Part shown: one piece after another, positions 17,635 through 20,830 of the stretch | Layout: each line of letters begins with the position of its first letter | Numbering within the stretch: the stretch's first letter is position 1 | Position numbers and translations under genes: made by a program | Source: an uncultured cyanobacterium | GTDB lineage: Bacteria > Cyanobacteriota > Cyanobacteriia > CAKZMO01 | Assembly (NCBI GenBank): GCA_963719515.1 | Contig: CAVRCJ010000003.1 | Location: 32,001-96,000, forward strand | Direction: 5' to 3' | Length of the DNA stretch: 64,000 bases | Notes under the pieces: model-generated | The model's input: the letters and a program-made list of their open reading frames with translations, nothing else | Told to the model about the DNA's origin: nothing | Databases searched by the model: none

Positions 17635-17732
17635 CCTGCCCTTAACGAATTGTAACGATAGGTCAGCTATTCTGATAGGAGCCAAATTTTTGAAATAGGC
17701 CGCGTATGCCCGTCCTTTTGGTCTCCTTTCCC

Positions 17733-18425
17733 ATGTTCGACCTCCTGATAAAAGGGGGGATCGTCATGATTCCGCTGCTGCTGCTGTCCATACTGACCAT
17801 CGCCACGTCGCTAGAGCGGCTGATATTTTGGTACCGATTGTTGAGCAAAGAAGATCGCATCGTCCAGGATGTGGTCGACGCTGCTCACCATAGCCTCACA
17901 GAAGCCCGCCACATTGCCGAGCGCGCCAGCGACCTTGCCATTGGCCGGTTTTTGCTGTCTCCCCTGAGACTGCATCAGCCTTCTCCCGAGACGTTTCGGC
18001 TCGCCATGGAGTCTGCCGCCGACAAAGAGTTTGTCCGTATGCGGCGGGGCGATAAGTTTTTAGAAACGGTGGTGGCCCTTTCGCCGCTCATTGGCCTTTT
18101 GGGAACCGTGACGGGACTGATCCGGACCTTCAACAACCTCGACATCGGCGGTCAGGGGTCGGGAGAGAGCGGTGAACTGGCGGCGGCGGGAATTGGTGAA
18201 GCGCTGATCACGACGGCGGCAGGGATGTTTGTAGCTATCTTAGCGCTGGTATTTTTCCGCGTCTTTGTGACGCTGCAGTCGCGGCAGATGGACTACTTTT
18301 CTGAGGTGGGTAGTGAGCTAGAGCTAATTTATCGTCAGGAGTGGTACGAAAAGGACAGCGTGAGTCATGAGGACGTGAGTTACGAGGACAGGCGGCTTCC
18401 TTCTGAAGCCCCCACCTCAATTTAG
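17733..18425 (+). CDS. exbB: MotA/TolQ/ExbB proton channel protein
   Basis: KGGIVMIPL, SPLIGLLGTVTGLI..F and GIGEALITTAAG motifs. Confidence 0.9.
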   Translation: MFDLLIKGGIVMIPLLLLSILTIATSLERLIFWYRLLSKEDRIVQDVVDAAHHSLTEARHIAERASDLAIGRFLLSPLRLHQPSPETFRLAMESAADKEFVRMRRGDKFLETVVALSPLIGLLGTVTGLIRTFNNLDIGGQGSGESGELAAAGIGEALITTAAGMFVAILALVFFRVFVTLQSRQMDYFSEVGSELELIYRQEWYEKDSVSHEDVSYEDRRLPSEAPTSI

Positions 18426-18449
18426 CTACTAGACAGGAAGCCCCGCGCT

Positions 18450-18632
18450 CTACCCGTCAGGGTGAGCGTCGGGATGAGAGTCGCGGTCGTCGATGGGGCT
18501 CAATGCCCCGGAGACGGCCAAACTTCGGATGTACTCCCTAAGGACATCGTTGATAGTTCTTTCGGTCATCTCACAATACTTGTCAAGATGCTGCTTTTCT
18601 CTGTCAGCGGCTCTAATAGTTATTTGCTGCAT
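18450..18632 (-). CDS. Putative ribbon-helix-helix (CopG-like) DNA-binding protein inside IS element 1
   Basis: MQQITIRA (alternating beta strand), DREKQHLDKYCEMT (helix A), RTINDVLREYIRSL (helix B); transcribed divergently from tnpB. Confidence 0.65.
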   Translation of the reverse strand: MQQITIRAADREKQHLDKYCEMTERTINDVLREYIRSLAVSGALSPIDDRDSHPDAHPDG

Positions 18633-18665
18633 GTCGTTCTGATGTCAATATGCTATCATTATTGC

Positions 18666-19862
18666 ATGAAAGTCACTTATCAGTACAAGTTGCGTCCAGC
18701 GGCTGAGCAAACGGTTACCATGACCCGATGGCTAGACATGCTTCGGGCACAGTACAACTGGTTGCTGGCTGAGCGATTCGACTGGTGGGAGATGAACCGC
18801 TGTTCGGTCAACGCCTGCCCACTCACCTGTAGCCTTGCGCCACTCAAAGATAATCCTAATTACTACAGCCAGAAGGCTAGCCTAGTACCTCTCAAGCGAG
18901 AGCGACCCTGGTACAAAGATTTGCACTCACAAGCGCTTCAGGAGGTGACGAAGCAGGTAAAGCAGACGTTCGAGCGTTTCATCAAAGGTGATAAAAACGG
19001 TAAGCGTAGCGGCAAGCCTCGGTTCAAAGGCGCGGGGCGCTACAGGACGTTCACGTTCCCGCAGATGAAACCTGACTGCATCGATGGAAGTCGTATTACC
19101 CTGCCTAAGATTGGCCAGGTGAAGCTAATCCTTCATCGCCCGATACCTGATGGGTTTACTGTCAAAACCGCCAAGGTGACTCGCAAAGCAGATGGTTGGT
19201 ATGTGAGCCTGTTACTGGAAAACAATGCCGTTCCGATGCTTACTCCGGATGTCGATAGGGCTAAGTCTGTCGGTGTTGACGTTGGGCTGAAGGATTTCTT
19301 GGTTACCAGTGACGGTGAGAGCGTTCCTATCCCTCAGTTCTTTCGACGCTCAGAGCGGCAGCTATCCAAGCTGCAGCGGCAGCTATCGAGACAGAAGAAG
19401 GGCTCTAACCGCTGGCGTAAGCAGGTGAATCGTATCGCCAAACTACACCTAAAGATATCGCGTCAGCGTCGTGATTTCTTTTCTAAGGTGTGGGATTGGC
19501 TGTTTTCAAAGTACGATGTTGTCGCTCATGAAAAGCTCAACATCAAAGGACTTGCTCGAACCAGACTGGTAAAGTCAATCGCTGATGCCGCATGGGGTAC
19601 ATTCTTGGAGATAGGCTCTTTCAAAGCCGCGAAAGCTGGAAAGATGACCATCGCTGAGAACCCACGCGGAACCAGCATTGATTGCTCGGGTTGTGGTGAG
19701 CGGGTACCAAAGACGCTGGCCGATCGGGTCCATAGTTGCCCGTCATGCGGCTTAACGATCTGTCGCGACCACAACGCGGCTATCAACCTATTGAATAGGG
19801 CTGTGGGACATCAAGCCCTTAATCTCTCAGGAAATGTCTCAGCAGTAGCTGGGAGTCACTGA
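18666..19862 (+). CDS. tnpB: RNA-guided endonuclease TnpB (398 aa)
   Basis: N-terminal YQYKLRP, RuvC-I GVDVGL, RuvC-II AHEKL, Zn finger CSGC..CPSC and RuvC-III RDHNAAINL. Confidence 0.95.
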   Translation: MKVTYQYKLRPAAEQTVTMTRWLDMLRAQYNWLLAERFDWWEMNRCSVNACPLTCSLAPLKDNPNYYSQKASLVPLKRERPWYKDLHSQALQEVTKQVKQTFERFIKGDKNGKRSGKPRFKGAGRYRTFTFPQMKPDCIDGSRITLPKIGQVKLILHRPIPDGFTVKTAKVTRKADGWYVSLLLENNAVPMLTPDVDRAKSVGVDVGLKDFLVTSDGESVPIPQFFRRSERQLSKLQRQLSRQKKGSNRWRKQVNRIAKLHLKISRQRRDFFSKVWDWLFSKYDVVAHEKLNIKGLARTRLVKSIADAAWGTFLEIGSFKAAKAGKMTIAENPRGTSIDCSGCGERVPKTLADRVHSCPSCGLTICRDHNAAINLLNRAVGHQALNLSGNVSAVAGSH

Positions 19863-19908
19863 GGAAGCCCGCGCTGTATGCGTAGCATCAGCGTCGGGAG
19901 GATGTCAC
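19797..19908 (+). ncRNA. Predicted omegaRNA scaffold of element 1 (guide = flank from 19909)
   Basis: Overlaps the tnpB 3' end. Stems AGGGCT/AGCCCT, CTCAG/CTGAG, TCTCAGC/GCTGGGA and the right-end hairpin, ending in TCAC. The 5' boundary is estimated. Confidence 0.6.
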
Positions 19909-19940
19909 GCGCTAACCCAGATCTAAGCGGAACCAGTCCT

Positions 19941-20357
19941 ATGCCACTCCACAAGCGTAAAGAGCCCGCCATCCCGACGGTAAATCTCATTCCGATGCTC
20001 AACGTTATGCTGGGCATTCTGGCATTTTTTGTGTTGATTACCATGTCGCTGACCCTGCCCACGGGCTTAGAGGTCCAGCTTCCCGCCCGCTCAGACTCGC
20101 CGTCCCCCGCCGCTCCTGAAGACGGCGAGCCTCCTCTAATCGTCACGCTAGAAGCAGAGGACCGGATTTTGATTAAAGAGACCCGGCTCTCTCAAGAGGA
20201 GGCTAGGGCGCAGGTGCAGCAGTACCTGGCTGGCAGTGAAGAGCGACTGGTCTACATCAAGGCAGAACCAGAGGCGGCCTACTTAGATGTAGTTCAGTTC
20301 GTGCTGCAGATGAAGGAAGCAGGAGGCGATCGCGTTTCCCTGGCTATTGAGGAGTAA
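19941..20357 (+). CDS. exbD: ExbD/TolR-family protein (Asn in place of the conserved TM Asp)
   Basis: VNLIPMLNVML TM segment, V.LP, Y..V and GG.RVSLA motifs. The ORF-track start at 19878 lies inside the IS, so ATG 19941 is preferred. Confidence 0.85.
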   Translation: MPLHKRKEPAIPTVNLIPMLNVMLGILAFFVLITMSLTLPTGLEVQLPARSDSPSPAAPEDGEPPLIVTLEAEDRILIKETRLSQEEARAQVQQYLAGSEERLVYIKAEPEAAYLDVVQFVLQMKEAGGDRVSLAIEE

Positions 20358-20428: not shown

Positions 20429-20830
20429 ATGGGCTTCAGGCAAAATAGACCCCCAGAGGTTCCCGAGGTAAACCTGGTGCCCATGATGGACGTGCTGATG
20501 TCTGTCCTGACATTCTTCATCATCATCTCGATGAATCTAACCAGCGAGGATATTCGCTCAGTTGAGCTGCCGACAGTCAGCGGTAGAGGCGAAGAAGATA
20601 CCGGCGCTCCTTTTGTAGTCGGTCTAGATGCCGACGGTCGAATTTTACGGGTTGATGAAGTTGTCAGTGAAGCAGAACTTAGCGAGAGCTTGGGGGCGTA
20701 TTTGGCGGAAAATCCGGAAGGCTACGTTCGCCTCAAGGCTGACCGTGACCTGGACTACGCGGATATTTCGCAGCTGTTGCTCACGATTCGCGACATCGGG
20801 GGGGGCCGCGTGTCGCTAGCGGTGGAATAG
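20429..20830 (+). CDS. exbD: ExbD/TolR-family protein
   Basis: EVNLVPMMDVLM, LKADRDLDY and RVSLAVE motifs. Confidence 0.9.
   Translation: MGFRQNRPPEVPEVNLVPMMDVLMSVLTFFIIISMNLTSEDIRSVELPTVSGRGEEDTGAPFVVGLDADGRILRVDEVVSEAELSESLGAYLAENPEGYVRLKADRDLDYADISQLLLTIRDIGGGRVSLAVE

Follow-up and report, generated by a model that had tools for sequence, protein, structure and literature searches.

A predicted ribbon-helix-helix gene occupies the tnpA position of a mobile, non-autonomous IS200/IS605-family tnpB element in a cyanobacterium

The window analysed here, a stretch of 64,000 nucleotides from an uncultured cyanobacterium (GenBank assembly GCA_963719515.1, contig CAVRCJ010000003.1, positions 32,001 to 96,000 of the forward strand), harbours at positions 18426-19908 (plus strand) a complete IS200/IS605-family element of 1483 bp that carries tnpB and no tnpA. 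A minus-strand open reading frame (ORF) of 60 aa (18450-18632, stop codon included) faces tnpB (18666-19862, plus strand, 398 aa) head-to-head. We find that this ORF is a real, conserved gene, and profile searches together with structural modelling place its product among the ribbon-helix-helix (RHH) proteins. We propose that the element is a non-autonomous form in which the Y1 transposase gene has been swapped for an RHH gene, that the RHH protein represses the divergent promoters of the element, and that the TnpA of sibling copies mobilises it in trans. For this reading as a whole we estimate a probability of about 70%.

The element is mobile, and its limits are defined by comparison of its copies. 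The left boundary directly follows a TTAG tetranucleotide (18422-18425, plus strand) and the right boundary is the last base common to all copies, so that the extent given in the original prediction is borne out. In the genome of the host (5.28 Mb, 21 contigs) we found 15 full-length copies with 98.6-100% identity, located at different sites and bordered by different flanks. Genome-wide, TTAG stands directly 5' of all 70 left ends scored, as part of TTTAG in 60 of them, and the right flanks of the copies have no sequence in common. Transposition by a Y1 enzyme leaves this combination as its signature, and TTAG is thereby defined as the presumed transposon-associated motif (TAM) of TnpB. In the window the target site overlaps the stop codon (TAG) of exbB (17706-18425, Pfam MotA_ExbB), which is the insertion point; the likely start of exbD (Pfam ExbD) lies at 19941, 32 bp past the element. 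In three congener genomes exbD directly follows exbB and the element is absent. Subterminal hairpins that agree in stem and bulged T are present at both ends, at 18442-18473 on the left (plus strand, DNA folding energy -14.4 kcal/mol, z-score -2.0) and at 19868-19898 on the right (plus strand, -12.7 kcal/mol, z-score -3.3). Imperfect subterminal hairpins are a hallmark of the IS200/IS605 family, as is insertion 3' of a short fixed target that is not duplicated; a further hallmark, a Y1 (HUH) TnpA, is not encoded by this copy.

What the RHH gene replaces is seen in three sibling copies in the same genome. From its second codon on their tnpB is 96-99% identical to the present one, and a 159-aa Y1 TnpA gene stands in place of the RHH gene. 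The RHH gene thus occupies exactly the tnpA slot of the siblings, in keeping with the expectation that it had taken the divergent position usual for tnpA. The sibling on contig C10 combines an intact 159-aa TnpA (Pfam Y1_Tnp, 7.5e-41) with an intact 398-aa TnpB; tnpB is frameshifted in the C1 sibling and the start of tnpA is damaged in the C5 sibling, leaving tnpA ORFs of 159 aa intact in two of the three. The claim of the original prediction that no HuH/Y1 TnpA is present therefore holds for this copy but not for the genome, with its one intact tnpA-tnpB sibling and two partly broken ones. Since TnpA is missing from this copy and is encoded in the three siblings, the copy is a non-autonomous member of its family. 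Our census of the genome gave 81 left ends, 77 right ends, 18 RHH cores, 20 tnpB genes, 3 tnpA genes and 53 mini-element cores. One element family is thus present in three forms side by side (tnpA-tnpB, RHH-tnpB and mini). These numbers fit a family run by very few transposase genes, and the three tnpA siblings probably mobilise the approximately 18 RHH-type copies and the 53 mini-elements in trans. Homologues of the Y1 transposase were also detected in four of five other genomes that carry RHH-tnpB elements.

The mini-elements, none of which lies in the window, are 392 bp long and share both ends and the TTAG target with the full element (examples are C10:858887-859278, C10:602105-602496, C6:428067-428458 and C1:23689-24080); their 220-nt core is found 53 times at 97-100% identity. 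They retain a remnant of a tnpB 3' end (frame ...AVGHQ...AIAGSH) together with about 85 nt resembling the right end of the full element, which are possibly an omegaRNA scaffold.

In the full element TnpB matches the Pfam families OrfB_IS605 (4.8e-23), Cas12f1-like_TNB (1.2e-16) and HTH_OrfB_IS605 (2.3e-9), and the RuvC residues D205, E289 and D368 as well as the four zinc-finger cysteines are invariant in an alignment of eight sequences (TnpB and seven homologues). The gene is intact in 13 of the 15 copies, one of the others carrying a 1-nt insertion and one having lost its stop codon. From what is known of the family we presume that the omegaRNA scaffold extends from the 3' end of tnpB to position 19908; an Rfam search over 18300-20050 with E values up to 1 matched no family.

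Several lines of evidence demonstrate that the 60-aa ORF is a genuine gene. It is open in all 15 full-length copies and in each of them lies between the left-end hairpin, which its 3' end overlaps, and tnpB; the 33 bp (18633-18665) separating its start codon from that of tnpB are exactly as predicted. Full-length homologues with 56-75% identity are found head-to-head with tnpB in other cyanobacteria, and at 58-63% identity they occur in three other cyanobacterial families, each again head-to-head with tnpB. A six-frame search gave matches in 23 of 101 genomes (100 related genomes and the host's own, E ≤ 0.01), and the ORF was unmatched in this search in the four congeners, whose genomes are 80-93% complete. 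With a profile of six homologous proteins, 78 of 401 genomes sampled across the phylum were matched at E ≤ 1e-8, and the same profile retrieved 67 protein clusters from a large protein collection, in which a single-sequence search, limited by its word index, had given 3 proteins. Of 46 homologue loci fetched, chosen as the best-scoring matches of each search rather than at random, 18 carry tnpB head-to-head, and the products of these genes are 25-60% identical to the present TnpB. The RHH-tnpB pairing thus spans several tnpB clades. It is also present on a plasmid of Oscillatoria nigro-viridis PCC 7112, where the neighbouring gene bears the annotation 'RNA-guided endonuclease TnpB family protein'.

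Between elements the ORF is under strong purifying selection. For codons 1-40, 21 pairwise comparisons yield pN (non-synonymous differences per site) of 0.02-0.35 against pS (synonymous differences per site) of 0.33-1.10, synonymous sites being saturated or nearly so, and the ratio of non-synonymous to synonymous substitution rates (dN/dS) in the four pairs with computable dS is 0.05, 0.08, 0.12 and 0.18. Two of the tests that the original prediction had suggested for the ORF, co-occurrence with tnpB across cyanobacteria and dN/dS, have both come out in its favour, with the former extending from this tnpB clade to others. In the protein collection the copies of the gene from the host's own genome bear no source name and no Pfam match, and several homologues are labelled hypothetical. 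Contigs from three metatranscriptome runs (5-9% of the sampled words) were compared with positions 18380-19960; none spans the RHH ORF, which is uninformative with respect to its expression. These contigs are mostly 90-95% alike to the element and hence derive from relatives; portions of tnpB and the end hairpins are represented in them, and one contig has a loose end that matches the tnpA-type control region. In the genome we also observed one rearranged RHH-type copy (C13:118817-120428), in which the RHH region is split and partly duplicated, with aa 1-42 and aa 28-60 matching separate places about 100 bp apart.

The assignment to the RHH family, likewise anticipated, is based on profiles and on a structural model. 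Pfam RHH_1 is matched by 12 of 19 aligned family members (best E 5.9e-7) and DUF6290 by 10 of the 19, homologues carry precomputed PF01402 matches, and several of the 67 clusters have been named 'ribbon-helix-helix protein, CopG family' by NCBI. An AlphaFold2 model computed from the 19-member alignment (mean predicted local distance difference test (pLDDT) score 74.4) shows an extended N-terminus followed by helices at residues 10-23 and 27-41, while the tail has a pLDDT below 61 and is predicted to be disordered. When this model was compared with the PDB using Foldseek, the top rows were nearly all RHH proteins, led by phage P22 Arc (1bdv, 1par) and including CopA, AmrZ, TacA, ParD, NikR and CopG; several of them are RHH antitoxins. 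P22 Arc, plasmid CopG and the RHH antitoxins are the best structural matches, with template modelling (TM) scores of 0.55-0.62 over 40-48 residues, but sequence identity to them is only 10-27% and the E values are not significant. The predicted RHH domain comprises aa 1-41 (18510-18632), the tail aa 42-60 (18453-18509), and the DNA-reading strand is predicted to present Q3, T5 and R7.

The same domain forms the N-terminus of RHH+TOBE/Mop proteins of about 130-160 aa encoded beside modA/modB in eight fetched loci from as many cyanobacterial genomes (L027, L028, L031, L033, L034, L035, L036 and L040, with the RHH match near position 1500 of each). The combination with a C-terminal, molybdate-binding TOBE/Mop part indicates that the domain is the DNA-binding portion of a ligand-responsive regulator. 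These proteins resemble a ModE-type molybdate regulator built on an RHH domain rather than on a winged helix; a sequence search of the PDB with the family profile matched only the TOBE/Mop part. Other homologues are small stand-alone genes in cyanobacteria with small genomes. In one cyanobacterial family, in which all 45 sampled genomes match the profile, an RHH homologue of 54-58 aa adjoins an ORF of about 400 aa (L055, L056, L058-L064 and L066) that, judging by its sequence pattern, we take to resemble a desaturase dependent on flavin adenine dinucleotide (FAD). Solo RHH genes of the transposon type, 48 aa long and ending in ...NP(L/I)D, have no tnpB within 1.5 kb (L043, L044, L046 and L047) and may be what is left of decayed elements, or copies that have been domesticated.

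The region on which such a protein could act comprises the 33 bp between the two start codons. A -10-like hexamer, TATCAT (18654-18659), is located 6 nt ahead of the tnpB ATG. In 10 of 12 RHH-tnpB elements compared, a TAnnAT hexamer keeps precisely this distance of 6 nt from the tnpB start, often preceded by TGC as in TGCTATAAT. Elements with the same spacing are L022, L023, L024, L026, L041, L042, L049, L051 and L054; in the two exceptions, L025 and L045, 27-32 nt separate the hexamer from the start. A hexamer so close to the start codon suggests that the tnpB mRNA begins at or next to this codon, and thus that tnpB transcripts in the RHH-tnpB clade are leaderless. An imperfect 19-bp palindrome, TGATGTCAATATGCTATCA (18640-18658), overlaps both the tnpB -10 and a possible -10 of the RHH gene on the opposite strand, and is weakly indicated as a candidate operator; relatives have inverted or direct TAGCA-type repeats at the matching place. 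Positions 18637-18665 are invariant among the 15 copies. At the -10, RHH-type and tnpA-type control regions have in common a TATGCTAT(C/T)AT box, the remainder of the two regions being different. A single sigma-70-like site occurs in the element, within the RHH ORF (18550-18577, plus strand; TTGATA, 16 nt, CACAAT), a count equal to or below that of shuffled sequence; if the site is real, the resulting tnpB transcript would be antisense to the RHH gene over its 5' half.

By analogy with Arc-encoding elements of the IS605 family, the RHH protein most likely serves to regulate the divergent promoters of its own element. A 2023 preprint (Zedaveinyte et al., 10.1101/2023.11.20.567912) reported an Arc-like RHH ORF in IStrons and described hundreds of homologues in association with TnpB, Cas12k transposons, homing endonucleases and toxin-antitoxin systems. 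For Clostridial IS605-family elements, some of which contain only arc and tnpB, a second preprint describes chromatin immunoprecipitation sequencing (ChIP-seq) in which Arc binds the intergenic promoter, and reporter assays with mutants in which Arc represses the tnpB promoter; autoregulation of arc and repression of tnpA are put forward there as proposals (Moon, Zedaveinyte, Wiegand & Sternberg, bioRxiv 10.64898/2026.09.24.754181, dated 2026-10-04). In the cyanobacterial element, RHH dimers would bind the control region that holds the -10 of the leaderless-type tnpB promoter and probably also the promoter of the RHH gene itself. Binding would repress tnpB, and hence the mRNA that serves as the source of omegaRNA, together with the RHH gene, a negative autoregulation that would become stronger with rising copy number. 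Transposition would be effected in trans by the Y1 TnpA of the siblings, which have the same end hairpins and the same TTAG target. The binding of DNA, its operator site, the ensuing repression, a leaderless tnpB mRNA and mobilisation in trans are the inferred parts of this model.

A number of results weigh against the model or its premises. In the control region itself, no exact inverted repeat of at least 6 nt is present within 18600-18700, where only a direct repeat of TGCATG around both start codons was seen, and a scan with the sigma-70 consensus returned no site in the 33 bp, the counts of sigma-70 sites and terminators being equal to those in shuffled sequence. Taken alone, the 60-aa protein scores under the Pfam cut-offs for both RHH_1 (15.2 bits versus 20.5, E 0.022) and DUF6290 (17.9 bits versus 27, E 0.0036), and the best Foldseek E value is 0.19, with none reaching 0.001, as expected for about 45 residues. 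With respect to the link to tnpB, 28 of the 46 fetched loci have none, so that the RHH family is not specific to transposons, and the divergence of RHH proteins and TnpBs is only weakly correlated (Spearman 0.26 over 120 non-independent pairs), a pattern compatible with a long-standing association in which partners have to some extent been exchanged. Finally, the ORFs of the 15 recent copies carry five non-synonymous and three synonymous singletons, too few to show constraint.

A more far-reaching version of the model, which we regard as speculative, sees the RHH-tnpB form as a regulated parasite of its own parent. The pooled RHH protein of all copies would act in trans as a copy-number sensor, silencing tnpB everywhere as well as the tnpA of the autonomous copies, and would thereby set the transposition rate of about 80 elements, including the 53 mini-elements. 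This is suggested by the finding that the form has no transposase and yet outnumbers its parent by about 18 copies to 3, and by the TATGCTAT -10 box that it has in common with this parent.

Somewhat less probable still, and compatible with promoter self-repression, is an action of the RHH protein on transposition or on the whole element family, either through repression of the siblings' tnpA/tnpB promoter in trans, amounting to copy-number control of the transposase, or through binding to the left end with an effect on TnpA. Such a role would be in line with the common TATGCTAT(C/T)AT box, with the excess of RHH-type over tnpA-type copies (18 versus 3) and with the overlap between the 3' end of the RHH gene and the left-end hairpin. 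Apart from the box the two control regions differ, however, and RHH proteins recognise repeats in double-stranded DNA, whereas TnpA works on hairpins of single-stranded DNA. Repression of tnpA by Arc is likewise raised, as a proposal only, by Moon et al.

We consider it improbable that the RHH protein is instead an antitoxin-like inhibitor that binds TnpB and blocks its nuclease activity. This has been proposed for archaeal RHH/MazE-TnpB pairs, for which Altae-Tran et al. (2023, PNAS, PMC10691335) proposed a toxin-antitoxin role on the basis of co-folding. Several of the top structural matches of our model are RHH antitoxins, and 9 of the 19 family members give weak matches to NCBIfam RelB-antitoxin models (best E 0.0012, far below the cut-off). 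Several features of the cyanobacterial pair nevertheless speak against this role: the genes are divergent and do not form an antitoxin-toxin operon, the D/E/D site of TnpB is canonical whereas that of the archaeal clade is rearranged, and the element is mobile and multi-copy rather than immobilised. Moreover, the sole C-terminal extension of the RHH protein comes from left-end DNA, is predicted to be disordered and is cut away in several relatives, whose protein has 48 aa.

The tail bears on the relation of the ORF to tnpA. BLASTP aligns residues 30-60 of the RHH protein with residues 124-159 of TnpA at 53% identity. At the nucleotide level RHH-type and tnpA-type elements match over bases 1-87 only (84-86% identity), and this match ends at codon 41. 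The resemblance to TnpA is therefore that of the tail, which stems from left-end DNA, and not of the RHH domain. We interpret the tail as the part that both genes read out of the left-end DNA, and the RHH domain (aa 1-41) as a separate cassette that, by its sequence, is not derived from tnpA; its signature motifs are also kept in the host RHH-TOBE regulators, which are unrelated to tnpA. Alignment of the ORF as a tnpA fragment, named in the original prediction as an outcome that would speak against an RHH gene, is thus found for residues 30-60 and not for the RHH domain, where homology ends at codon 41. The motifs 'KYC' and 'VL.(R/E)YI', common to both, had also prompted the idea that the whole ORF arose from tnpA by in-frame deletion; this was rejected, as BLASTP aligns residues 30-60 only, nucleotide homology ends at codon 41 and the motifs are conserved in the host RHH-TOBE regulators. 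That the ORF is a non-functional leftover, be it a chance frame or an internally deleted tnpA remnant, is effectively refuted: the tail's 53% identity to the TnpA C-terminus, the sub-threshold Pfam scores and the lack of a clear synonymous excess among recent copies are outweighed by the end of homology to the tnpA-type element at base 87, by full-length homologues in other cyanobacterial families with dN/dS of 0.05-0.18, and by the occurrence of the same domain in host regulators without a link to tnpA.

At its site in the window the element splits the exbB-exbD pair (17706-20357), with tnpB in the same orientation as the operon. Transcripts reading through from the host genes would be antisense with respect to the RHH gene and in the sense direction for tnpB, and exbD expression may rely on transcripts that cross the element. 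A second exbD-like gene is located at 20429-20830.

The original prediction had presented control by an RHH protein as a regulatory layer outside the standard IS200/IS605 model. This is outdated, as a report of the association dates from 2023 and one of the mechanism from October 2026. With the idea already in print, the present element is a new example of the RHH-tnpB arrangement and not a new kind; a literature search found no paper specifically on the cyanobacterial RHH-tnpB family. The Arc-encoding IS605-family elements of Zedaveinyte et al. and Moon et al. resemble it in having a small RHH gene inside the element, on the strand opposite to tnpB and with a short common intergenic promoter region, in occurring in forms with only arc and tnpB, and in that many such genes are unannotated micro-proteins. 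The transposon-associated Arc clade of Moon et al. comprises 362 homologues. In contrast to the elements described there, the present one resides in a cyanobacterium, a group that the main text of Moon et al. does not mention, and its RHH gene replaces tnpA rather than accompanying it. The predicted DNA-reading strand is Q3/T5/R7 here as opposed to N5/N7/T9 in their model protein, and the control region has only 33 bp with a leaderless-type -10.

Other known systems are more distant. The archaeal RHH/MazE-TnpB pairs have in common with the present element a small RHH gene adjoining tnpB, but according to Altae-Tran et al. (PMC10691335) their RHH gene is upstream of tnpB and co-oriented with it, TnpB has a rearranged catalytic site, the pairs are immobile and a toxin-antitoxin role is proposed, whereas the element described here has head-to-head genes and a canonical D/E/D site and is mobile. 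Cyanobacterial Tn7-like elements with nuclease-dead Cas12k also bear a small transposon-encoded repressor beside a TnpB-derived effector, as described by Moon et al. and Zedaveinyte et al.; they differ in being Tn7-like and in their nuclease-dead effector, a comparison made by description only. Canonical IS200/IS605 elements (divergent tnpA-tnpB) with their tnpB-only and miniature derivatives agree with the present element in having subterminal hairpins but no terminal inverted repeats, in inserting 3' of a tetranucleotide that is fixed, in their intact TnpB and in depending on a Y1 TnpA, but here the tnpA slot holds a regulator gene instead of being empty or deleted. The tnpB-only derivatives are those we take to be called IS1341-type, and the miniature ones presumably correspond to PATE-like elements.

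To the newly described Arc-tnpB arrangement the element contributes an example from a cyanobacterium whose copies are very recent. It further provides a natural comparison absent from published work, since one genome contains the same tnpB (96-99% identical) behind either a transposase or a repressor gene, together with 53 mini-elements with the same ends. This raises the questions whether the repressor works in trans across copies, whether it touches the promoter of the transposase, and whether repression helps a non-autonomous element to outnumber its autonomous parent. A leaderless tnpB mRNA, as suggested by the conserved -10 box, would in addition bear on how the omegaRNA precursor is produced.

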